DNA of 10,686 nucleotides, from NCBI GenBank assembly GCA_048941015.1, contig JBHLNZ010000084.1, forward strand, positions 1 through 10,686, read 5' to 3'. This DNA is from Promethearchaeota archaeon (lineage in GTDB: Archaea; Asgardarchaeota; Lokiarchaeia; Sigyniarchaeales; SOKP01). Below are positions 142-10,686 of this stretch, piece by piece. Position 1 is the first letter of the stretch; every line of letters starts with the position of its first letter. The translations under genes were made by a program, and so were the position numbers. The notes beneath the pieces were generated by a model. It was not told where the DNA came from. It saw nothing but the letters and a program-made list of their open reading frames with translations, and searched no databases.

Positions 142-282
142 AAAGAATTCGCTACTCGGACAATCCTACATTGAAGTTAAAAACTATTATGATAAACTTA
201 TTTATAAAAATTTCTTTTCTCTTTCAATATCCATTTAAAGAATTAGTTCTAATCCGTTAAATTAGATTTAAGATTGGAAAAT

Positions 283-1227
283 CTATTTTTTTTCCCTTAC
301 AATCATAAAAATTGAAAAGATAATGATTACTGTTCCAAATAGATGAAAAATTGTAAAGATTTCTCCAAGAATAAGAAAAGAGAAAAAAGATGAAACTATA
401 GGCGTAAGAGAGTTAATTATACTCGCTTTTCCAATTTGAATATATGTTAATGTTTTGTACCATAATAAAAGGCTCACTCCATAATCTACTCCCATAAGCA
501 TGAAGAAGGCGAAGTTATTGGGATCAAAGACTATTCTTATATTTTCAATTGGAAAAATCGCAAAATAAATTGAAATCAATAAAATCCCCGAAAATAAATT
601 TCTAATAAATCCTACTTGAGATGGAAATAACTCATTTTTTTCAAATCTGGTTTTTGTGAGGGTATGCACAAGAGTAAATAGTCCAACACTGAATAATAGG
701 GTTATTACACCAAGGTTGAACTCAATCAAATTGAATCCTCCGTTGGTTATAGCGAGCATAAGACCAAAGAATAAAAGGAAGCAAAAAGCAGTTTGGATCT
801 TTGTGATTTTTTCATCTAAAATAAAGTAGCCAAAAATAAGAGCAAATATAATTTCAGATTTCAAACTTAAAGAACTATTAATTGCACCTGCAAGTCCATA
901 ACCAATATAAAGTAAAATGGGGACAATACTGAATGACAAACCTATAATTATGAGTATTTTAATATTCTCTTTTTTTTTCCATCCATGAAGTAAGGAAGTA
1001 TTTCTTAAATTGAATTCAGGGGATAACTTTAATTCTTTTTTTAATTTATGTCTTTCAAATAAAAAAATTGGTAAGAACAAAATCGCTTCAATCAAAGCAG
1101 TTATTGCTCCAAATAAATACGGGTCAATGATGCTTGGTCGTGCATTAGAAATTACTGGTTGTAATCCTATGGTAAAAGCAGCAACAGATCCAAAAATAAT
1201 TCCCTTTTTTAAATTATAATTTTCCAA
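283..1227 (-). CDS. EamA/DMT family transporter (two EamA repeats, about 10 TM helices)
   Basis: 314 aa, highly hydrophobic, TTG start. Twin DMT signatures: 'GAINSSL...EIIFALIFGYFILDEKIT' and 'IGKASIINSLTPIVSSFFSFLILGEIFT'. Confidence 0.9.
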   Translation of the reverse strand: MENYNLKKGIIFGSVAAFTIGLQPVISNARPSIIDPYLFGAITALIEAILFLPIFLFERHKLKKELKLSPEFNLRNTSLLHGWKKKENIKILIIIGLSFSIVPILLYIGYGLAGAINSSLSLKSEIIFALIFGYFILDEKITKIQTAFCFLLFFGLMLAITNGGFNLIEFNLGVITLLFSVGLFTLVHTLTKTRFEKNELFPSQVGFIRNLFSGILLISIYFAIFPIENIRIVFDPNNFAFFMLMGVDYGVSLLLWYKTLTYIQIGKASIINSLTPIVSSFFSFLILGEIFTIFHLFGTVIIIFSIFMIVREKK

Positions 1228-1300
1228 GCTATTAGAAAAAAATTAATTAATAATTAAAAACTTGTGAATAAATCTCATCTATAAAAAATTGACCATAACT

Positions 1301-3121
1301 TCACTCTTTTGAATATTTTCCAAATTGAGGAAAAGATTTCAATTGCGTGGAATCAAATATTGGTCCTTCTTTACAGACTGTGATATTATTTTTCTCTCCG
1401 ATGCAACATGATCCACATAGACCTACACCACACTTCATCTTTCTCTCTAAACTTGCTTGAATTTCAATATTATTAGAGTTTGCTATTTCTAGGACCCGCT
1501 TCATCATAACTTCGGGTCCACATGTTAAAATTAAGTCTATTTTTTCTTTTTTGATGATATCTTCAATAGTATCTGTAACAAAGCATTTCTTACCAACAGA
1601 ACCATCATCAGTAGTACAAAGTGTATTAGGGATTAGATCTATCAGTCTATCGGAAAAAATTAAAGAGGGTTCATCCTTTGCACCTATCGCTATAAAAACA
1701 TTTTTTTTATTTTTCTTTAATGGTTCAATTAAAGATGTTAATGCGGCGATTCCCATGCCTCCTCCAACAATAAGTATATTTTCAGCATCTTCATAGTTCC
1801 ATGTATTTCCATAAGGGCCTCTAATTCCGATCAAATCTCCTTGAACCAAATCAAATAACTTAGAAGTCCCTTCTCCAATTCTCTCAACTGTAATTTCGAT
1901 CAAATTTCCATCAATTTTAGATATTGACATTGGTAAGAAGTCAATATCTAGTAACCATAAAATAACAAACATACCTGGCTTGTAAGCTTTGGCGATTCTT
2001 TGATTTCGAATAAAGAAGCTCTTTATTTTAGGTGAGTGTTCTATTACAGACTCAATTTTTACGATATCTGTCTTAGTTCTTGTAAGATCTAAGATAAGTT
2101 CCTCATCATCTTTATCAAGAGATTTTGCTGTGATAATTTCTTTTTCAATTGCTAATTCAAAGACTTTTTTACCTCTTTCAGTTCTTATTATAGTTGTATC
2201 CCATCCTATCTCACTTCCAAAATTACCAACTGAAATGTCTGCAAAAGATGCAGTGTAATCTGAACATGAGAAGCAAGCTTTTCTAATAGCATTGTCATAC
2301 AAATAATTCAATGGTATTTCTTTAACTAAAGAGTTTGTTCTGATTTTTAAAGTGAAGTTGTTTTTATCGGTATCGATTTGTTCAATTTCACTATCTTTAA
2401 TACCATTCTTGAGAAAGATCTCACTTAGAATCTTGTTGTAATAAGTGCCTGTGCAAAAGGTTCCAATTGCTAAAGTAACTAAATCATATGCTTCATAATC
2501 GAAAGTTGGATGAGTTTGCAACTTTCTTAACGCTTGAATTTGACATGGGGTCCCAACGACAGCAATGTCACTATGCTCTTTATTGATCGCCTCACCTATA
2601 AGAGAAATAGTTGGAGATTGACTTGGCTTATAACCAACTCCTTTTAAAAGATCTTTTGGACTTTCAGCGATTATAGGAATAGGCTTAAAATCCCCATCTT
2701 TATCTGTAATAATTGAGGCATCTATCAAACCATTTTCCATCGCTACATATAATAAAGCTGTTAAAGGACCTGCATTTGAAGGGAACTTTCCTAATGCTTT
2801 CTCAGTTAGTTTTACAGACTTTATATCGATATAGTGTCCTAAAATCCTTTCACTTCTTATACCAAAGACCCATTTATCTAATAAGGATATTGGTATTAGA
2901 TCTATTTCAGTTTTAGGACAAAGATTATAGCAAAGACCATATCCATCTCGACAAGTATTCATATCTTTACAAGATCCATCCTCAATTGGGACTTCTTTTT
3001 CTCTATCGAATTTTATATTAGCACAAAAAGCCCCACATGCTCCACAATAAACACATTTTCCTGTTTGAATGACTTCTTCATATAATTCTTGCCATCCTTT
3101 CTTAATCTTTTGAATAAACAT
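1301..3121 (-). CDS. Fusion protein: N-terminal ferredoxin + FrhB/FdhB (F420-reducing hydrogenase beta-like) domain, C-terminal PyrK-like FAD/NAD(P)/2Fe-2S (dihydroorotate dehydrogenase electron-transfer subunit-like) domain
   Basis: N-terminus has CVYCGACGAFC and C-x5-C-x6-C-x3-CP. FrhB motifs: LTALLYVAMENGLIDA, VGTPCQIQALRK, IGTFC, CFSCSDYTASFADISVG. PyrK motifs: PGMFV, PMSIS, GIRGPYGN, VGGGMG, CGPEVMM, ERKMKCGVGLCGSC...VCKEGPIF. The track's GTG start at 3133 lies inside an AGGTGA RBS, so ATG 3121 (1 nt after the upstream TGA) is the more likely start. Confidence 0.9.
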   Translation of the reverse strand: MFIQKIKKGWQELYEEVIQTGKCVYCGACGAFCANIKFDREKEVPIEDGSCKDMNTCRDGYGLCYNLCPKTEIDLIPISLLDKWVFGIRSERILGHYIDIKSVKLTEKALGKFPSNAGPLTALLYVAMENGLIDASIITDKDGDFKPIPIIAESPKDLLKGVGYKPSQSPTISLIGEAINKEHSDIAVVGTPCQIQALRKLQTHPTFDYEAYDLVTLAIGTFCTGTYYNKILSEIFLKNGIKDSEIEQIDTDKNNFTLKIRTNSLVKEIPLNYLYDNAIRKACFSCSDYTASFADISVGNFGSEIGWDTTIIRTERGKKVFELAIEKEIITAKSLDKDDEELILDLTRTKTDIVKIESVIEHSPKIKSFFIRNQRIAKAYKPGMFVILWLLDIDFLPMSISKIDGNLIEITVERIGEGTSKLFDLVQGDLIGIRGPYGNTWNYEDAENILIVGGGMGIAALTSLIEPLKKNKKNVFIAIGAKDEPSLIFSDRLIDLIPNTLCTTDDGSVGKKCFVTDTIEDIIKKEKIDLILTCGPEVMMKRVLEIANSNNIEIQASLERKMKCGVGLCGSCCIGEKNNITVCKEGPIFDSTQLKSFPQFGKYSKE

Positions 3122-3122
3122 C

Positions 3123-3719
3123 TCAATTTTCACCTTTTTCTAGCTTTTTTATAAATTCCAAGCCTTCTTGCCTACCAAGTTCAAATGCTTCAAGATTTTT
3201 GTCAATAGTCGACTTTGGTACAAAATTTTTAACAGTTTCAATTGCAGATTCTTCAGAAAAGATACCAGAAACTACTGTAAATATCCCAAATAGAATTGAA
3301 TTACCGAATACGATATTTCCAAATCTTTCAACTGCTAATTTTTGAATGGGAATCCCTAATGCTTTCTTTATTCTTTTTGCGGCCCTAAATTTACTAATCG
3401 TTGAGGTATCCCAGATTAGAAACCCAGTACCATTTTCTTTTATGAAGTTTGGTTTAACGTCACTAGCGGCTTCTTCAGATAAAATAATTAAAAAATCATA
3501 CGGTTGTAAGGCTTTTGGATAATCAATTAAATCCAGATTCTTATCTAACTCAATTACCACTTCTGCCCAGCATTTTCCCCCCCGAGCGGATGCCGAATAA
3601 GCTTCTGTTTGAGTAGCAGCCAAATTTTCATACAATGAGCTTGCGGTTATAATCATTTTACTAAGAGTAATAACCCCCTGGCCTCCATATCCGGCAATTC
3701 TAACTTCATAACGAGCCAA
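3123..3719 (-). CDS. korC: 2-oxoacid:ferredoxin oxidoreductase gamma subunit
   Basis: VRIAGYGGQGV, AYSASARGG and KNLEAFELG motifs; located in the OFOR operon; TTG start. The symbol is family-level and the substrate is uncertain. Confidence 0.9.
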   Translation of the reverse strand: MARYEVRIAGYGGQGVITLSKMIITASSLYENLAATQTEAYSASARGGKCWAEVVIELDKNLDLIDYPKALQPYDFLIILSEEAASDVKPNFIKENGTGFLIWDTSTISKFRAAKRIKKALGIPIQKLAVERFGNIVFGNSILFGIFTVVSGIFSEESAIETVKNFVPKSTIDKNLEAFELGRQEGLEFIKKLEKGEN

Positions 3720-3722
3720 GTT

Positions 3723-4640
3723 TTATTTTCCCCCCATTGCTATCTTTTGAATTTTAGCATATTCGTCTGAATATTCCGGTTTATTCGGTTCATATCTAAA
3801 TTCACCAATAACATATTTGTTAAACAATTCCTCTTCTGTCATAAATTTTGCTTGATTTATTCTAACTGTATTTCTTTTGATCCAATCTAACATTTTTAAT
3901 CCCTGATCCATTTTGGCTCCTTCTACACCAAGATTTTCAGCACCAAGACTGTCTAAGTTTTTCCGCCCAAAATAAGTAACACAAGGGGTTATTACTTCAA
4001 TTACTGAAGTTCCTTTATGCTTTAAAGCTTTTTTGAAATATTTAATATAAGTACGAGGATGTGCTACTGTAGTCCTTGCAACATAGGTAGCTCCTGCAGC
4101 TAAAGCTAAATTTACCCCATCAATTCTATTTTCAAACATTTTATAAGGAGTTGTTGTACTACTTGCACCATAGAGAGTAGTAGGAGCTCCTTGCCCTCCT
4201 GTCATAGCATAAATGCTGTTATTAAAAATAAAAAGGACACAATCTAAATTTCTTCGGCAAAGGTGTATAAAATGATTTCCTCCTATTCCAAGACAATCAC
4301 CATCCCCAGAAAAGATTATTGGCTTCATTTTAGGGTTTGCTAATTTTATTCCAGTCGCAACTGGAGGAGCTCGGCCATGAAGGGATAATATTTTTTGTGA
4401 TTTAGCATGTACATTCAATAAAATTTGGCTATAACAACCAATGCCTATTATTGTTGGAAATAAATGAGGATCTAATCCTTCATCTTCAAAAATTCGTGTA
4501 AATATTTGACCAATAATACCATATCCACAACCTGAGCAAAACATTGTGGAAAAATTACCAAATATACTACCAGCATAGGATACCATAACATAAGGATGCT
4601 CTGGTTTTTCATTTGGAACCATTCTTCCAATATCTGACAT
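3723..4640 (-). CDS. korB: 2-oxoacid:ferredoxin oxidoreductase beta subunit (TPP- and 4Fe-4S-binding)
   Basis: FCSGCG, GIGC, LHGR, GDGD...IGGNHFIH..RRN...NNSIYAMTGGQ (TPP motif) and TPCVTYFG. TAATG stop/start overlap with the alpha gene, GGAGG RBS upstream. Confidence 0.93.
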   Translation of the reverse strand: MSDIGRMVPNEKPEHPYVMVSYAGSIFGNFSTMFCSGCGYGIIGQIFTRIFEDEGLDPHLFPTIIGIGCYSQILLNVHAKSQKILSLHGRAPPVATGIKLANPKMKPIIFSGDGDCLGIGGNHFIHLCRRNLDCVLFIFNNSIYAMTGGQGAPTTLYGASSTTTPYKMFENRIDGVNLALAAGATYVARTTVAHPRTYIKYFKKALKHKGTSVIEVITPCVTYFGRKNLDSLGAENLGVEGAKMDQGLKMLDWIKRNTVRINQAKFMTEEELFNKYVIGEFRYEPNKPEYSDEYAKIQKIAMGGK

Positions 4641-5815
4641 TATTTTGCTACCTCCCTAATTGCATTCAATATCTCATCAGGGTGATGAAACACTCCTACC
4701 TTTGGTATCTTAATGATTGGCATCCCTAGTTTTGAAACTCTTTCAACTTGTTCAGCTATAATGCCAGTATAATTTAGTTCAGGTACAATAATTGCCTTAG
4801 CATCCTTTACAGCCTCTTTTACAATCGCATCAGGAAAAGGCCATACAGTTACAAGCCTTAAAATTCCTACTTTAATACCTTCATCACGAGCAAGATCAAC
4901 AGCACGATAACTTGCTCTTATTGGCAAACCATAACCAACAACTACTATTTCAGCATCCTCAAGCTTATACTTTTCAGTAATACAGATTTTATCTTTATTG
5001 CTATTGATTTTTTCTACTAATACTTCCATAAATTGCGTTAGTTTAGGTGAAGGTAATCCTTCATAATTATGAGCCATATGCAAAAATATTCCAGGGCAAT
5101 AATCAGTACCTATAACTGGGGGTTTTGGAATAATATATTTTCCACTTATGTCATCTTTATAAGAGAATTTCTTGATGAAATCTTCAGGTAACTCTCTTTT
5201 AACAATTCTTTTCAAAATTTCTTCTTTTGGAGGTATATTTACTATTTCATGTAGATGACCTAAATACGCATCAGACAGGATAAACACTGGACAACGATAA
5301 ATCTCTGCGAAATTAAATGCGGTTATGGTTAAATCAAACAATTCTTGGCAATTCATTGGTGCAATTGCTATAACTTGAAATTCTCCATGCCCAGAGAAAC
5401 GTACCAATCCAATATCATTGTGATGCGGTTCAGTTACAGGTCCAGCACTTCCTGGACCAGCTCGCTGAACATCACAAAAAACAAATGGTATTTCTAAATT
5501 TGCAGCCATTGATATTGTTTCTACCATTAAAGACAAGCCAGGACCTGAAGTAGCTGTCATTGCTTTTGCACCTGTCAATGAAGCTCCAATTACAGAATTT
5601 ATCGAAGCTAATTCATCTTCCATCTGCATACAAACCCCTCCAACCTCAGGTAATCTTATAGCTAGATGTTCAATTACTTCTGTACTAGGTGTAATTGGAT
5701 ATCCACCAAAATACGATAAACCAGCAGAAAGAGCACCCTCGGACATAGCAACATTGCCCATCATTAAATGTCTACCTGGTTTTAAAAACCTTTTACCATT
5801 TACATTACTCAACAT
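4640..5815 (-). CDS. korA: 2-oxoacid:ferredoxin oxidoreductase alpha subunit
   Basis: MMGNVA, GYPITPSTE, QMEDE, TATSGPG and VWPFP motifs. The track's GTG at 5821 lies within the GAGGTGA RBS (5824-5818), so the true start is likely ATG 5815 or TTG 5812. Confidence 0.93.
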   Translation of the reverse strand: MLSNVNGKRFLKPGRHLMMGNVAMSEGALSAGLSYFGGYPITPSTEVIEHLAIRLPEVGGVCMQMEDELASINSVIGASLTGAKAMTATSGPGLSLMVETISMAANLEIPFVFCDVQRAGPGSAGPVTEPHHNDIGLVRFSGHGEFQVIAIAPMNCQELFDLTITAFNFAEIYRCPVFILSDAYLGHLHEIVNIPPKEEILKRIVKRELPEDFIKKFSYKDDISGKYIIPKPPVIGTDYCPGIFLHMAHNYEGLPSPKLTQFMEVLVEKINSNKDKICITEKYKLEDAEIVVVGYGLPIRASYRAVDLARDEGIKVGILRLVTVWPFPDAIVKEAVKDAKAIIVPELNYTGIIAEQVERVSKLGMPIIKIPKVGVFHHPDEILNAIREVAK

Positions 5816-5825
5816 ATTCACCTCT

Positions 5826-6107
5826 TTAAGTTTCCGCTTTTTCAGCCAATTTTTCTTGTTCTTTTTCTAATACATAAATACACCATTCTGGGCAAGCAAA
5901 CTCGCATCTTCGACATCCTGTACAATATTTTTCTTTCCCTTGTTTAACTCGTGGTAAGTAAGCAACTCTCATATTTAATTCATCTCCCGGCTCCAAAATA
6001 CCTGTAGGACAAACTGCAATACAATTGTAGCATTCATTTCCACCGCATCTGTTTTTATTTAAAAATAAAGTGAATTTTTTCTCTTTATTTTCTATTAAAT
6101 TTGGTAT
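5826..6107 (-). CDS. korD: 2-oxoacid:ferredoxin oxidoreductase delta subunit (2x[4Fe-4S] ferredoxin), 93 aa; not in ORF track
   Basis: Manual translation: (I/M)PNLIENKEKKFTLFLNKNRCGGNECYNCIAVCPTGILEPGDELNMRVAYLPRVKQGKEKYCTGCRRCEFACPEWCIYVLEKEQEKLAEKAET, ending at TAA 5828-5826. Two ferredoxin Cys clusters, in the canonical delta position upstream of alpha. No ATG/GTG/TTG precedes the first Cys cluster; putative ATA start at 6107. Confidence 0.88.
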   Translation of the reverse strand: MPNLIENKEKKFTLFLNKNRCGGNECYNCIAVCPTGILEPGDELNMRVAYLPRVKQGKEKYCTGCRRCEFACPEWCIYVLEKEQEKLAEKAET

Positions 6108-6266
6108 TTTTTATCAACTCACGATTTATTAATTAATTATAGTAAATATTCTAATAATTATAAATTTCAATTTATTCAATTTTAAGTGTTTTTGAAAAAT
6201 TAGTTAATTCTAAAAATCATTTAATTCTATGAAAAAATATAGTTTTTTTAAGAAAGGTGAATCTTT
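6108..6266. promoter_or_regulatory. Divergent (bidirectional) promoter region between the OFOR operon and the DRE-TIM gene
   Basis: Very AT-rich gap between head-to-head genes. Minus strand has GAAA-TTTATAAT (BRE/TATA-like, 6168-6157) and RBS-like GAGTTGA (6120-6114). Plus strand has TTTAATT near 6220-6226 and AGGTGA at 6255-6260. Individual box assignments are tentative. Confidence 0.55.
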
Positions 6267-7487
6267 TTGGAAAATGCTTGGTTAAATGCTTGGATCTCCA
6301 TGAAAATGGGTAAAGATCAGAAATGGTGGAGTTGGGATTGGAATTTTAAAGAATCGGTAAGAAATCAGATGAATTTGCCTGAAAAGATTATAATTAAAGA
6401 TGATACATTGAGAGAAGGGGAAGAAACTCCTGGTTCATATTTTACCATAAATCAAAAAGTAGAAATCGCAAAACTTTTAGAAGAAATGGGTATTCCAGAA
6501 TTAGAAGTAGGATATGCTGCGGGAATTAAAGAACATGCTGACACTTTTAAAGAATTGAAGAGAGAGGGAATTAAAGCGAAATTATCATCACATGCACGAT
6601 TATATGCCAAAGATATAAAGAAAGAAGTAGATGATATCCTTGCAGCGGGGGCGGATCATATCAACTTTTTATTAGTTCCTGACCCTATATTGAATTCTAA
6701 GAAAGCTGTTTTTGAAAGAATATCTCATGGAATACAATATGCAAAGGATGAAGGTGCGTATGTCGCCTTTGGATCTGGTAGAGTATTACCTAAATATTGG
6801 GAGAAATTCTGTAGTTTAGCAATAGAAGCAGGGGTTGATAGGATAGTTTGTTATGACGGAAATGGATGTGCTCATCCTACAGCATTTAGGGATAATGTTG
6901 CATTTACCAAAAAAGTAGTTGAGAAAGTTCCAATAGAGGTTCATACCCATAACGATCTAGGATTAGCTTGCGCTACAACTCTTGCAGGTGTTGAAGGTGG
7001 AGCAGAAGTTGTTGATGTAGTTTTTAATGGGCTAGGCGATAGAGCAGGTAATGCAGCTACAGAAGAAGTAATAATGGCTCTTGAAATCTTATATGGGATA
7101 GACACAGGCATAAAATTAGAAAAAATAACAGAGGTATCTAAAATCATTGAGAAATATAGTAAAACTCCACTTCAAGCACATAAAGCAATAGTTGGAAAAA
7201 ATTGCTTTATTCATGAATCAGATTTACATGTTGAGCAGATTCTTATTGGTAATTGGATAACATGGGAGCTTTATCAACCTCAAGTTGTTGGACAAACAAG
7301 AAAGTTAATCTTTGGAGCTACAACTTTACAAAATAGAGCTCTTATAGCAAAATTGTCAAAAATGGGGTTAAATCCAACAAAAGTTCATATTGAAACTATT
7401 AGGAAAAAGATACAAGAGAAAACAAAGGTTAATCAATTCATTACAGAAAAAGAGCTTGAAAAAATAGCTAATGAAATTGTAAAATAA
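6267..7487 (+). CDS. DRE-TIM metallolyase, LeuA/AksA/CimA-like (homocitrate/2-isopropylmalate/citramalate synthase family), divergent, no C-terminal regulatory domain
   Basis: DDTLREGEETPG, ELEVG, HTHNDLG (metal ligands), NGLGDRAGNAATEEV and KAIVGKNCFIHES; 406 aa. AGGTGA RBS lies 6 nt before the TTG start. Confidence 0.88.
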   Translation: MENAWLNAWISMKMGKDQKWWSWDWNFKESVRNQMNLPEKIIIKDDTLREGEETPGSYFTINQKVEIAKLLEEMGIPELEVGYAAGIKEHADTFKELKREGIKAKLSSHARLYAKDIKKEVDDILAAGADHINFLLVPDPILNSKKAVFERISHGIQYAKDEGAYVAFGSGRVLPKYWEKFCSLAIEAGVDRIVCYDGNGCAHPTAFRDNVAFTKKVVEKVPIEVHTHNDLGLACATTLAGVEGGAEVVDVVFNGLGDRAGNAATEEVIMALEILYGIDTGIKLEKITEVSKIIEKYSKTPLQAHKAIVGKNCFIHESDLHVEQILIGNWITWELYQPQVVGQTRKLIFGATTLQNRALIAKLSKMGLNPTKVHIETIRKKIQEKTKVNQFITEKELEKIANEIVK

Positions 7488-7498
7488 AACCCTTCGAT

Positions 7499-8683
7499 TT
7501 AACTTAATTTTTTATATTCTTCTAAAATTTTATGTGCAACATCACCAGTAGTCCCAAATTTTCCTTCCTTCCGATAATTTGGCGGAACTGCGTCTTTAGG
7601 TAAATAACTCCAACTTTTTTCTATATTTAATCCACCAATAATTGTTTTTTCAATAGCTTTCATCAATCCTTTCGATTCTTTCTCATAACCTAAATAATCA
7701 AGCATCATTGTTGCTGAGATTATAGTCCCAATAGGATTTGCGATCTTTTCGCCTGCAATATCAGGAGCAGAGCCATGAGTTGGTTCAAAATACGGAATAT
7801 TTAGTCCATATACTCCTGATCCTGCTATTCCTAGTCCTCCTACTATTTGTGCTGCTTCATCAGATAAGATATCACCCATCATATTAGGTATAACAATAGT
7901 ATCATGGTAATCTGGAAATCTAATCAATCTAGCAGCAAAATCATCTACAATATATGTTTCTACTTGAAGTTCGGGATATTCCTTTTTAACTATCTCTTTA
8001 ATTCTTTTTATAAACATTCCATCTTGTTGACGAAAAATATTCGGTTTACATACGATTTCAAGCAAACCCTTTCCGATTCCTTCATCTTTACGCTTTATAC
8101 ATACTTCACAAGCCACTCGTCCTACTCTGTCTGTTGCTCTAGGAGATACTACTCTGAAACTATATATAGCATCCTCAGTCCATCTTTCTATATCTGGTTT
8201 ATAAATCAATCCTTTTTTGATTAATTTCGTTAATTTTCCTTCCTTGCCCGTAGCAGCATAGCATCCTTCTGTACATTCTCTTATAAAAATGTAATCAATA
8301 TTATCAACTAAATCTTGTTTTAGATTAGTATACATTCCTTTAAAATATTTTATAGGCCTTATATTGGCAAAATTACCTAACCCCCATCGTAAATATGCTA
8401 TAACTTGTACTGCAGATTCATGAGTTGCGCCAAATAAAACAGCGTCAGAATTATCAACTGCCTCTTTTGTTTCTGGTGGAAATGCGTTACCATAAGTTTC
8501 TATAGCACTTTCTCCGCATGGCATTATTTTTATTTCTAAATCACTAATATTCATTCCTTCTAATATAAAAACAGTCGCATTTACTACTTCAGGGCCTATT
8601 CCATCCCCCCCAAGTGCTATTACCTTTTTTAGCGATTTATTAATTTTAGGACTTTTTAAAATATTTCGACGTTCATTTTCCAT
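7499..8683 (-). CDS. leuB: Isocitrate/isopropylmalate (beta-decarboxylating) dehydrogenase family, archaeal LeuB/AksF-like
   Basis: GDGIGPEV, LFGA, LR...FANIRP, RECTEGCY, KPN, NMMGDILSDEAAQIVGGLG and FEPTHGSAPDIAG..IANP. The symbol is family-level only. Confidence 0.9.
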   Translation of the reverse strand: MENERRNILKSPKINKSLKKVIALGGDGIGPEVVNATVFILEGMNISDLEIKIMPCGESAIETYGNAFPPETKEAVDNSDAVLFGATHESAVQVIAYLRWGLGNFANIRPIKYFKGMYTNLKQDLVDNIDYIFIRECTEGCYAATGKEGKLTKLIKKGLIYKPDIERWTEDAIYSFRVVSPRATDRVGRVACEVCIKRKDEGIGKGLLEIVCKPNIFRQQDGMFIKRIKEIVKKEYPELQVETYIVDDFAARLIRFPDYHDTIVIPNMMGDILSDEAAQIVGGLGIAGSGVYGLNIPYFEPTHGSAPDIAGEKIANPIGTIISATMMLDYLGYEKESKGLMKAIEKTIIGGLNIEKSWSYLPKDAVPPNYRKEGKFGTTGDVAHKILEEYKKLS

Positions 8684-8734
8684 AAAATCAATTCTCTTTT
8701 TATTTTTCTTTAGATTTTAATAAAAACTTTAAAG

Positions 8735-9271
8735 TTAATCTGCCTCTTCTTTTAGCTCGGAAAGAAGCACTTCAATCAAACCTTTTTTCTTTAAAATTTT
8801 AAGTAAAATTGGATGAATTGCTTTTCCTTTAAATGTCTCACCAGATTTTAAATTTTTAACTTCTGCTTTAGGTATATTTAATTCAACCACATCTCCTGTT
8901 TGAAATTGTTTTGAAATATTTTCTATTTCAATAACTGGAAGTCCTCGAGCAATTGAGGAACGATAGAATATACGAGCAAAGCTCTCAGAAATAATTGCAA
9001 CTATTCCCTTCTCCTGTAGTATTGCTGGAGCTGTTTCTCTACTTGAACCACATCCAAAGTTCCTACCAGCGATAATAATGTCCCCCTCTTTTACTTTCAT
9101 GGGAAATTCTTTAATTATTGTTTCACAGGTATGCGTTAATGTTGCCTCTAAATCATCTAAATATTGACCTGGAGATATAGCATCAGTATCTACATTATCT
9201 GGAAATAGCCAAACGTTTCCCTTTATAATATCTTCATAATCTTTAATAGGTTTTTTACTTACTATTGCCAT
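8735..9271 (-). CDS. leuD: 3-isopropylmalate dehydratase / homoaconitase small subunit
   Basis: DNVDTDAISPG, AGRNFGCGSSRE and SFARIFYR motifs; GAGGTGA RBS 4 nt before ATG. The symbol is family-level only. Confidence 0.92.
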   Translation of the reverse strand: MAIVSKKPIKDYEDIIKGNVWLFPDNVDTDAISPGQYLDDLEATLTHTCETIIKEFPMKVKEGDIIIAGRNFGCGSSRETAPAILQEKGIVAIISESFARIFYRSSIARGLPVIEIENISKQFQTGDVVELNIPKAEVKNLKSGETFKGKAIHPILLKILKKKGLIEVLLSELKEEAD

Positions 9272-9281
9272 TTAATCACCT

Positions 9282-10550
9282 CTAAAACTCTCTTGGGTCT
9301 GTTATTTCGCCATTTAAGGCAGAAGCCGCTACTGTAGCTGGAGATCCAAGATATATTTCAGCAGCATTGCTTCCCATCCTACCCTGAAAATTTCTATTCG
9401 AACTCGATATGCATTTCTCACTAGGAGCAAGTAATCCGCCATGTGCCCCAAAACAAGCACCACAATTCGGATTTGTTATTATTCCACCTGCTTTGATTAG
9501 TTTCTCAGCTACACCCGATTTCGCAGCTTTTAACCAAGTTTCTTGCGATGCGGGAGTTATTATCATTCTTACATTGGGGTGTATTTTTTTTCCATCTATA
9601 ATTTTCGCTGCAATTTCTAAGTCTTCAAATCTTCCATTTGTACAGGATCCTAAAAATGCTTGGTTTATTTTTGTTCCTGCAACCTCGGATACAGGTTTAA
9701 CATTATCTATCGTATGTGGACATGAAACTTGAGGCTCTAAATCATTAACTTCTATTTCATATCTTTTTTCATAATTTGCATCTTCATCTGGTTTAATTAA
9801 TTCAAGTGAATTTTTTGTTCGATCTTTTAACCAATTAATTATCTTCTGATCGGGAATTCCAAAAGCAAATTTAGCCCCTAATTCTAATGCAAAATTAGAC
9901 ATAGTCATCCGAGATGCTATAGTTAAACTTTCCATAGTATTTCCAGAAAATTCAATTGATTTATATCTAGCTACCTCTGAAGTATAATCTCCTGCAATCT
10001 TAATTATTATATCTTTACTCATAACATTGTATGGTAATTTGCCATTAATCTCAAATTTGATTGATTGGGGAATTCTAAACCATAATTTTCCAGTCACATA
10101 AGCATAAAACAGATCTGTATTACCAACTCCACAACCAGCTGCATTAAAAGCTCCATAAGTTGTAGTATGACTATCTCCTCCAATTATAAGCATCCCAGGC
10201 TTAACAAAACCTTTTTCTGGTAAAACTTGATGACATATACCTTCTCTAATGTCATAAAAGTTTTTAATTCCTTGTTTTTTCACAAATTTACGGATAAGAT
10301 CATGAACCGCTGCCCACTTTTCTGTTGGCGCTGGAGCATAGTGATCAAATAGAACGACAATTTTGTTCGGATCAAAAACTTTTCTCTTCTTTGGTGGACG
10401 TATCTTTTGAAAATCTAAAAAGACTTTTGCGGTTCCAATATGACTCATTATTAAATCGACATTGGCAAAAATAATATCATTTATTTTCACATCTTTCCCA
10501 GATAAGGAATGAGATCCAAGTATTTTTTCAGCAATCGTTTTTCCACTCAA
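9282..10550 (-). CDS. leuC: 3-isopropylmalate dehydratase / homoaconitase large subunit (4Fe-4S)
   Basis: GKTIAEKIL, FDH, GICHQV, GDSHTTTYGA, FLGSCTNGR, PNCGACFG, SNRNFQGRMG and YLGSPATVAASA; all three cluster Cys present; TTG start. The symbol is family-level only. Confidence 0.94.
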   Translation of the reverse strand: MSGKTIAEKILGSHSLSGKDVKINDIIFANVDLIMSHIGTAKVFLDFQKIRPPKKRKVFDPNKIVVLFDHYAPAPTEKWAAVHDLIRKFVKKQGIKNFYDIREGICHQVLPEKGFVKPGMLIIGGDSHTTTYGAFNAAGCGVGNTDLFYAYVTGKLWFRIPQSIKFEINGKLPYNVMSKDIIIKIAGDYTSEVARYKSIEFSGNTMESLTIASRMTMSNFALELGAKFAFGIPDQKIINWLKDRTKNSLELIKPDEDANYEKRYEIEVNDLEPQVSCPHTIDNVKPVSEVAGTKINQAFLGSCTNGRFEDLEIAAKIIDGKKIHPNVRMIITPASQETWLKAAKSGVAEKLIKAGGIITNPNCGACFGAHGGLLAPSEKCISSSNRNFQGRMGSNAAEIYLGSPATVAASALNGEITDPREF

Positions 10551-10686
10551 TTAATACCACCAAAATATTAATTTAAAATTTTAAATTCTTCAAGTTTATT
10601 CTTATTTAACTTTTTTTCTGTATTTAAAGTATTTAGTTAAATCTTATAAAAATCTTAATAGAAAATAAGGTTCAATAAAAAGAAAT
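10551..10686 (-). promoter_or_regulatory. Putative promoter region of the leuCD-leuB-like operon
   Basis: AT-rich and non-coding. Minus strand reads GAAAAAAAG-TTAAATAA (10618-10602; BRE/TATA-like). An 18-bp palindrome lies at 10570-10587. Confidence 0.4.

Follow-up and report, generated by a model that had tools for sequence, protein, structure and literature searches.

We analyzed a 10,686-base stretch of DNA from a Promethearchaeota archaeon (hereafter the window; contig JBHLNZ010000084.1, assembly GCA_048941015.1) in which a four-subunit 2-oxoacid:ferredoxin oxidoreductase (OFOR) of the Kor type lies beside genes resembling those of 2-oxoacid elongation. The window is a mosaic of three separately inherited modules, brought together at a hot spot of gene flux between korD, the gene for the OFOR delta subunit, and the lactate-utilization genes lutAB. 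The modules are korDABG with a gene for a FrhB-PyrK fusion protein; a two-subunit hydro-lyase (LSU and SSU) with a dehydrogenase (DH); and a LeuA-family synthase (Syn). We propose, with a probability of about 0.55, that the accessory isomerase/dehydrogenase pair feeds the resident Kor, that the fused adaptor passes the electrons on, and that the synthase is a separate module. The system comprises an OFOR with an FrhB-type adaptor and paralogs of the LeuCD/LeuB superfamilies, for which substrates and electron acceptors are predicted from sequence.

Results

Nine genes in three modules

The window makes up the first part of a 12.6-kb scaffold (C27) in a 3.6-Mb genome of 29% G+C and 95% completeness, and genes were called from an open reading frame (ORF) listing together with Pfam and NCBIfam scans. 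A first-pass annotation had described a compact, self-contained set of nine genes. All nine are present, but instead of a single operon they form three transcription units on two strands: LSU-SSU-DH (minus strand, 10550-7499), the synthase (plus strand) and korDABG-fusion (minus strand, 6107-1301). The synthase converges with DH across 11 nucleotides (nt) and diverges from korD across 159 nt. The same annotation rightly listed no aminotransferase, ilv, lysW/X or methanogenesis gene in the window, where the sole further Pfam-positive ORF of at least 80 residues encodes an EamA-family transporter; four short nested opposite-strand ORFs lay outside the scan. Gene content, module boundaries, synteny and the lack of matches at function-specific cut-offs are direct observations.

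Past the window end, lutA and lutB are divergent from LSU, and two independent contigs (L122 and L123) have the same lutBA/LSU junction. Among close relatives the lutA-korD spacer takes four states. It is empty, with lutA directly adjoining korD, in L051 and L044 from the same genus and in L039 from another; it holds LSU-SSU-DH in L123; it holds LSU-SSU-DH and the synthase in the window and in L122, an independent metagenome contig that repeats the window gene order at 94-96% protein identity; and it holds a LAGLIDADG-like ORF, the synthase and Syn2, a 35%-identical paralog of Syn, in L121. This last contig, a sister from another assembly, is 97% identical to the scaffold over 168-7531 and 95% identical over 10854-12587 (blastn), and has Syn2 and the LAGLIDADG-like ORF where this genome has DH-SSU-LSU. 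The strain-variable cassette so delimited, DH-SSU-LSU with its upstream spacer, spans 7532-10686 and runs on to contig position 10853. Conservation of synteny in relatives had been chosen beforehand as the test of a self-contained nine-gene unit, and the nine-gene order is not conserved: the kor-fusion genes are common without the rest, Syn lies elsewhere in 11 of 11 genomes, and L121 swaps the cassette.

The korDABG operon and its fused redox gene

The korDABG genes and the fusion gene, often with EamA, make up an operon of five genes that is conserved in this archaeal order and whose product is predicted to be a KOR-type 2-oxoacid:ferredoxin oxidoreductase. On the minus strand lie korD (5826-6107; 93 residues with two [4Fe-4S] motifs), korA for the alpha subunit (4640-5821; Pfam POR_N and PFOR_II), korB for the thiamine pyrophosphate (TPP)-binding beta subunit (3723-4640; TPP_enzyme_C, 6e-31), korG for the gamma subunit (3123-3719; POR, 2e-24; NCBIfam NF006323, 122 bits) and the FrhB-PyrK fusion (1301-3133; FrhB_N/FrhB_C and PyrK-type domains by Pfam and NCBIfam). 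Neighboring genes are separated by at most 4 nt or overlap, and the start of the fusion overlaps the korG stop by 11 nt. About 20 of 41 family genomes have a full-length fusion ortholog (66-87% identity) and about five more have contig-end fragments; a second family has forms that are about 40% identical. The fusion follows korG in 19 of 20 related loci, and korG precedes it wherever sequence is available; korB, korA and korD come next upstream in an order kept in all 20 loci, the family of about 40% identity included. In 14 of the 20, the fusion is followed by an EamA homolog. Most relatives that have this operon lack the other window genes.

The four-subunit KorABGD layout, with a two-cluster delta and a TPP-binding beta subunit, emerges when korD is read from an ATA codon. 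No ATG, GTG or TTG precedes the first [4Fe-4S] motif and stops lie just upstream, leaving ATA at 6105-6107 as the sole possible start; both CxxCxxCxxxCP motifs appear only in this reading. In the relatives compared (L039, L044, L046, L047, L051, L057 and L121), the homologous start is ATG, GTG, ATT, ATC or ATA and the N-terminus is conserved. A GAGTTG-like motif is conserved about 8 nt upstream of the korD start. Gene callers shorten korD to 56 residues, with loss of one cluster motif.

The best matches of the Kor subunits are 2-oxoglutarate or generic 2-oxoacid models, all under equivalog cut-offs. The top PDB matches of korA are 1YD7 and the 2-oxoglutarate synthase 8YS5, and its product is the only KOR/OOR-type alpha subunit of the genome, the remaining ones being of the POR/VOR or two-subunit type. 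Like the four-subunit 2-oxoglutarate:ferredoxin oxidoreductases (KorABGD/OorDABC), which supply its best NCBIfam and PDB matches, the window enzyme has delta, alpha, beta and gamma subunits with TPP bound by beta. It differs from them in that alpha (393 bits against a cut-off of 411, NF006412) and beta (197 against 364, 2-oxoglutarate ferredoxin oxidoreductase beta) score under the equivalog cut-offs, and in the addition of a fifth, fused redox gene. The neighbors of Kor in relatives are mixed and include both pyruvate sources (lutAB, serine dehydratase) and a gene of succinyl-CoA metabolism (B12 mutase). Because many genomes without DH keep the same operon, the Kor substrate is probably a mainstream 2-oxoacid, and an ordinary 2-oxoacid is likelier as the compound handed over than the non-standard substrate earlier predicted for the locus.

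The fusion protein begins with a ferredoxin domain of two [4Fe-4S] clusters and an FrhB-type domain (residues ~1-360), followed by a PyrK/NfnA-type FAD/NAD/[2Fe-2S] part (~355-610). Searched against the PDB, it aligns with 8RIU_B over residues 16-366 (2.7e-55) and with NfnA 4YLF_A over residues 365-596 (6.8e-32). The entry matched by the FrhB half, 8RIU_B, is the F420-reductase zeta subunit of an F420-reducing carbon monoxide dehydrogenase (PMC11493965). Together with FwdI (8RJA_E), the adaptor of a formylmethanofuran dehydrogenase, this zeta subunit of acetyl-CoA decarbonylase/synthase from the ethane oxidizer Ca. Ethanoperedens thermophilum is the closest solved relative of the first 360 residues (PMC11493965). 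The likeness lies in a two-cluster ferredoxin and FrhB domain encoded in a cluster with a ferredoxin-reducing enzyme. The fusion, known here from its sequence, differs in having a KOR-type OFOR as its partner and in carrying a complete PyrK/NfnA-type domain that the solved adaptors lack. In ANME-1 archaea, FrhB paralogs are likewise clustered with OFOR genes, in that case those of pyruvate:ferredoxin oxidoreductase rather than of a KOR-type enzyme (PMC9012536). A GltD-type NfnB domain is absent by Pfam, NCBIfam and PDB searches and FrhB stands in its place, which sets the protein apart from NfnAB. Because CofH (469 bits; cut-off 374) and CofE (269; cut-off 181) both exceed their cut-offs in the genome, the cell probably makes F420. 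With a ferredoxin domain, an FrhB domain and F420 at hand, the redox-adaptor role earlier suggested for this protein is plausible, with F420 or NAD(P) as the predicted acceptor.

An isomerase/dehydrogenase module that recurs upstream of korD

The second module consists, on the minus strand, of LSU (9282-10550; LeuC/HacA-type), SSU (8735-9271; LeuD/HacB-type) and DH (7499-8683), a beta-decarboxylating enzyme of the superfamily of isocitrate dehydrogenase (IDH), isopropylmalate dehydrogenase (IPMDH) and homoisocitrate dehydrogenase (HICDH; Pfam Iso_dh, 4e-75). DH orthologs are present in only three of the 60 species genomes of the order, in ten named contigs of metagenome-assembled genomes (MAGs) and in about 25 metagenome contigs (66-94% identity); forms of 49-55% identity occur in MAGs labeled Halobacteriota or Methanobacteriota. 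LSU-SSU-DH is contiguous in 16 of 37 contigs. All three DH-bearing genomes (G138, G144 and G186) have an LSU ortholog, which in G138 lies 40 kb from DH, and none was found in the DH-less genomes G065 and G071.

In nine of the 24 contigs whose length permits a judgment, korD follows DH on the same strand at a distance of no more than 2.5 kb. The order in L123 is lutBA / LSU-SSU-DH-korDABG-fusion-EamA, a synthase being absent; in L125 it is TfrA-like-DH-kor-fusion, and L127, L128, L131 and L148 also have DH followed by korD. In the DH tree, the kor-adjacent contigs are spread over two clades, each with its own support, and are interspersed with kor-less ones. In L057, a permissive search revealed an older DH gene reduced to a short 5' stub and a short 3' stub on either side of an insertion, which contains a B12 mutase pair together with an intact DH; some 130 nt separate the 3' stub from korD. 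In the 19 kor loci without DH, LSU and SSU, no remnants of these genes were detected at E <= 1e-3. Of the synteny first proposed, the dehydrogenase-OFOR part recurs, and Syn adjoins DH only in this species. Because DH stands directly upstream of korD in these nine contigs and in two DH clades, a hand-over of its product to the OFOR, as first suggested, is plausible on the evidence of synteny.

LSU and SSU pass the broad hydro-lyase subfamily models (TIGR01343 hacA_fam, 536 bits, cut-off 386; TIGR02087, 161 bits, cut-off 109), and the LEU2, HacA_Meth, leud and HacB_Meth equivalogs all fall under their cut-offs. DH scores 253 bits against Pfam Iso_dh and lies under all NCBIfam cut-offs, including those of the top IDH equivalog NF006673 (192; cut-off 509), LeuB TIGR00169 (187; cut-off 353) and AksF2_Meth (236; cut-off 540). 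Its PDB matches to HICDH, IPMDH and IDH are all at about 1e-43 to 1e-49. The DH clade reads Q-V-[IL]-A-Y-L-R, with Gln and Ile/Leu at the Ser-x-Asn position of IDH (S113/N115 in E. coli), which precedes the first substrate Arg by four to six residues. Similarly, Val..Ile-Ala replaces Glu-x-x-Leu-Leu of IPMDH and Ala aligns with Arg85 of Thermus HICDH (1X0L). By alignment and tree, DH belongs to a distinct clade of its superfamily. An insertion of about 20 residues relative to LeuB and HICDH (residues ~146-167; GKEGK..KLIKKGLIYKPDIE.W) is kept clade-wide, Halobacteriota homologs included.

SSU carries a conserved Y-[LF]-D loop, and its PDB matches fit the isopropylmalate/citramalate isomerase of M. 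jannaschii (3VBA, 2e-42) better than the homoaconitase of that organism (2PKP, 8e-32). The M. jannaschii loop rule, by which YLRT denotes homoaconitase and YLVY isopropylmalate isomerase, was dropped, as Pyrococcus 1V7L has YNLT and the LeuD-like protein of this genome TLTL. The module resembles LeuCD/LeuB, HacAB/AksF and the Thermus/Pyrococcus HICDH systems (3VBA, 2PKP, 1X0L) in that one operon encodes a two-subunit aconitase-family hydro-lyase and then an Iso_dh-family dehydrogenase. It differs in scoring under every equivalog cut-off, in lacking the Arg85, ExxLL and SxN patterns, in forming a distinct clade shared with a few Halobacteriota-type MAGs, and in being linked to an OFOR instead of an aminotransferase or a lysine or coenzyme B context. 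These family assignments are based on curated hidden Markov model cut-offs.

The other neighbors of the module vary. A TfrA-like flavoprotein and a divergent pair of SdhA and an SdhB-CCG fusion flank DH in L054 (4855-9905), L124, L125 (312-1946) and L135 (4765-7301), a thiol:fumarate-reductase architecture found here in archaea other than methanogens. Upstream of LSU in L060 (3112-6386), L136 and L130 lie a gene for a lyase like PrpB, petal-death protein or 2,3-dimethylmalate lyase (KRCGH), a 238-residue protein without Pfam domains and an MFS_2 transporter; L136 additionally has an IlvD/EDD dehydratase. The MFS_2 and PrpB-like neighbors suggest an import-fed catabolic use of LSU-SSU-DH. Enoyl-CoA hydratase is another variable neighbor. 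The nearest non-Asgard relatives occur in synthase-DH-LSU-SSU clusters of Halobacteriota- or Methanobacteriota-labeled contigs (L064:1559-5789, L145 and L063), with DH about 50-55% and LSU about 62% identical. The proteins of these clusters are also under the Aks and Leu equivalog cut-offs; the L064 cluster adjoins the gene for an AMP-binding enzyme, with an MCR gamma gene nearby.

A synthase of the REGEE subfamily

Syn (6267-7487, plus strand) belongs to the DRE-TIM family of LeuA and homocitrate synthase (HCS). It scores 172 bits against Pfam HMGL-like and is under every NCBIfam cut-off, subfamily and equivalog alike. With the solved homocitrate and isopropylmalate synthases (6KTQ and 3RMJ) it shares an HMGL-like TIM barrel followed by HCS_D2, the HxH metal ligands (VHTHND) and an HCS-like REG. 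It differs from them in reading REGEE, GDRAGN and HESDLH for the R(D/E)GEQ of Claisen synthases, GERAGN and HESGIH, and in deletion of the FSxED acidic pair, VAFG---SGR aligning with FTAEDATR (6KTQ) and FSCEDALR (3RMJ). Because this missing pair includes the catalytic base, the Claisen chemistry of Syn is uncertain. The subfamily as a whole is marked by REGEE, GDRAGN and HES(D/E)LH. The substrate-position changes noted in the first pass are thus borne out in part, by REGEE and the lost acidic pair of the synthase, the pattern losses of DH and the Y-[LF]-D loop of SSU.

Orthologs of Syn (74-92% identity) occur in Asgard archaea only, and identity drops to 44% or less in the next relatives. None of the 11 species genomes carrying an ortholog has it near kor, DH or LSU. 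Syn adjoins Syn2 in eight of 13 loci, six of which also have an Fe-S protein pair and an MFS transporter, and it adjoins DH only in this species. An ESM Atlas look-up returned generic HMGL-like and homocitrate-synthase clusters only. As judged from its sequence motifs and gene neighborhoods, Syn represents a rewired, uncharacterized subfamily whose position here is species-specific. Since its usual neighbors differ and its motifs are altered, feeding LSU-SSU-DH is not expected to be its primary role. Syn's closest non-orthologous relative, P0077 (44% identity; L203:888-12140 and L204), is clustered with genes for a LarA-like racemase, a TAXI-TRAP transporter, PrpD, a PrpB-like lyase, a PrpF fragment, CitD/E/F and aconitase. 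These neighbors of P0077, and the transporters and Fe-S proteins beside Syn, are a further difference from 6KTQ and 3RMJ, and the P0077 context hints that REGEE-type enzymes handle tricarboxylates. Other distant relatives sit with hydantoinases, acylases or permeases, so that the contexts are catabolic and mixed. A further system close to Syn is presumably the Re-citrate synthase of Clostridium kluyveri; a literature search found no paper combining Re-citrate synthase and Asgard archaea.

Genome background and remaining features

The LeuCD/LeuB-like genes of the window are an extra, rare set, and the genome's own LeuB, and probably its LeuA and LeuCD, are encoded elsewhere. A second Iso_dh protein on scaffold C118 scores 346 bits against the TIGR00169 cut-off of 353, contains AESALLKIR (the ExxLL pattern) and matches IPMDH structures at 6e-92, its top PDB matches being isopropylmalate dehydrogenases only. 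A second LeuA-family synthase is encoded on C130 and a second LeuCD pair on C36; ilvC and two ilvD-family genes were also found. We therefore reject the view, raised with the first-pass annotation, that the window holds the only leu genes of the genome. The 'LeuA/LeuCD/LeuB' annotations of the REGEE and Y-[LF]-D clades are probably wrong. The genome encodes a canonical aconitase of 642 residues (980 bits; cut-off 612), an enzyme found in 49 of the order's 61 genomes. Searches of the genome detected neither a PF00285 citrate synthase nor, by tblastn, McrG or B12 mutase homologs. Because no McrG homolog was found, we assume no demand for coenzyme B; a coenzyme B (Aks) reading was rejected on this ground and because Aks equivalog scores are far under cut-off.

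Downstream of the fusion, the window encodes an EamA/DMT-family transporter (283-1227, minus strand; Pfam EamA, 1.9e-30) and, at 1-141, the 3' end of a URO-D-family gene. Between these two genes (window 169/170), L121 carries a 428-residue TIR_2-domain gene (L121:2580-3866) that is absent here. A 100-N scaffold gap follows the window at C27 10687-10786; because its flanks repeat the same 76 bases (10611-10686 and 10787-10862), the two ends overlap and the gap is an assembly artifact. An Rfam scan of the window returned no family at gathering score.

Discussion

We propose that the hydro-lyase LSU/SSU would isomerize a 2-substituted malate to its 3-substituted form, which DH would oxidatively decarboxylate to a 2-oxoacid. 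Because the DH gene recurs just upstream of korD, this product is probably fed to Kor, which would convert it to an acyl-CoA with release of a second CO2. The low-potential electrons from Kor would then pass through the Fe-S clusters of the fusion to F420 and/or NAD(P)+, probably rather than to free ferredoxin. It is also possible that Syn supplies the hydro-lyase in this species. In this scheme every substrate, the flux direction and the acceptors of the electrons are inferred. Several observations weigh against it. The DH-korD spacers measure 144-515 nt, so the two genes are not translationally coupled; no kor gene is near DH in 15 of the 24 contigs that are informative; and the DH-LSU-SSU homologs of two Halobacteriota/Methanobacteriota-type contigs have a LeuA-family synthase beside them, which speaks for a true synthase-fed elongation role of the clade.

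The intermediate shared by DH and Kor may be 2-oxoglutarate formed from isocitrate, a candidate that we favor at somewhat short of even odds. The best matches of Kor, the TfrA/Sdh and mutase neighbors and the failure to find another IDH or a citrate synthase in the genome point to it. Against it, DH lacks the Ser-x-Asn motif, the canonical aconitase that is core to the order should make LSU/SSU unnecessary, and LSU-SSU tracks DH rather than being dispensable. More tentatively, the intermediate could be 2-oxobutyrate or another alkyl 2-oxoacid, which would suit the Ile/Leu-Ala of DH at the Leu-Leu positions of IPMDH and the closer fit of SSU to the M. jannaschii isopropylmalate/citramalate isomerase than to homoaconitase. 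Pyruvate and 2-oxobutyrate are also central in a cultured relative (PMC7015854). The 2-oxoglutarate enzymes among the best matches of Kor argue against an alkyl substrate. We regard a compound outside these classes as unlikely, and 2-oxoadipate as more doubtful still.

The nine genes could alternatively form a single pathway in which Syn condenses acetyl-CoA with a non-standard 2-oxoacid, LSU/SSU and DH elongate it by one carbon, Kor yields the acyl-CoA and FrhB-PyrK balances redox. All three elongation activities adjoin the OFOR both here and in the independent L122, and a LeuCD/LeuB-type cassette is unlikely to land by chance beside a LeuA-type gene. The synthase also occurs in three of four DH-bearing family genomes, a synthase gene adjoins homologous DH-LSU-SSU clusters in Halobacteriota-type MAGs, and all four enzymes deviate from characterized specificity motifs. 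We nevertheless think such a pathway improbable, given that the synthase in the 11 species genomes keeps the company of Syn2, the Fe-S pair and the MFS transporter, and that DH is absent from nine of 12 synthase-bearing genomes. G186 has DH-SSU-LSU, and L123 LSU-SSU-DH-kor, without a synthase; Syn lacks the acidic pair of the solved HCS and isopropylmalate synthase; and Kor is common to genomes that lack the remaining genes. The opposite view, that the lutA-korD spacer is a recombination hot spot and that DH, LSU/SSU and the synthase serve Kor-independent pathways, would explain its four states among close relatives and the LSU-SSU-DH modules that lie beside MFS_2 and a PrpB/petal-death-protein-like lyase, TfrA/SdhB-CCG genes or enoyl-CoA hydratase. 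It appears slightly less probable again, because a hot spot alone does not account for the same gene recurring in the same orientation: the DH-korD adjacency is found with two upstream partners (LSU-SSU and TfrA-like), in two DH clades and in the stubs of L057.

A reductive direction is the explanation that we find hardest to credit. Kor would act as a 2-oxoacid synthase and the fusion as an Nfn-like bifurcating module, taking in F420H2 or NAD(P)H and giving out low-potential electrons; DH would carboxylate and LSU/SSU follow, making up a segment like that of the reductive tricarboxylic acid (TCA) cycle. The Nfn-like layout of the fusion, with a PyrK/NfnA-type half and a half with flavin and three clusters, fits this idea, as do the fumarate-reductase-like genes flanking DH (TfrA-like, SdhA and SdhB-CCG in L054, L124, L125 and L135) and the failure to find a PF00285 citrate synthase in the genome. 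However, bifurcation is not derivable from sequence, the NfnB-type subunit is absent, and no citrate-cleaving enzyme was identified. The cultured relative, moreover, has been described as an amino-acid fermenter that oxidizes 2-oxoacids (PMC7015854).

A bolder extension of the proposed hand-over from DH to Kor is that LSU/SSU, DH, Kor and the fusion make up an undescribed catabolic line in some Loki-type archaea. Such a line would convert a 2-substituted malate to an acyl-CoA by two decarboxylations and deliver both electron pairs to F420/NAD(P) without free ferredoxin; its substrate would be imported or, here, made by the REGEE synthase from an unusual 2-oxoacid. It would amount to the analog of half a TCA cycle put forward in the first pass, with a non-TCA substrate, and we consider it improbable.

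No closer relatives of eukaryotes are known than the Asgard archaea, whose energy metabolism has been deduced almost wholly from genomes. If the accessory pair feeds Kor and Kor passes its electrons straight to F420 or NAD(P), models of fermentation in Loki-type archaea will have to be revised as to the amount of reduced ferredoxin and H2 made and the organic acids used. The locus also shows accessory-gene turnover at a single spacer between 97%-identical contigs, and it draws attention to two uncharacterized clades of enzymes: the synthases with REGEE, and the hydro-lyase/dehydrogenase pair with the Y-[LF]-D loop.

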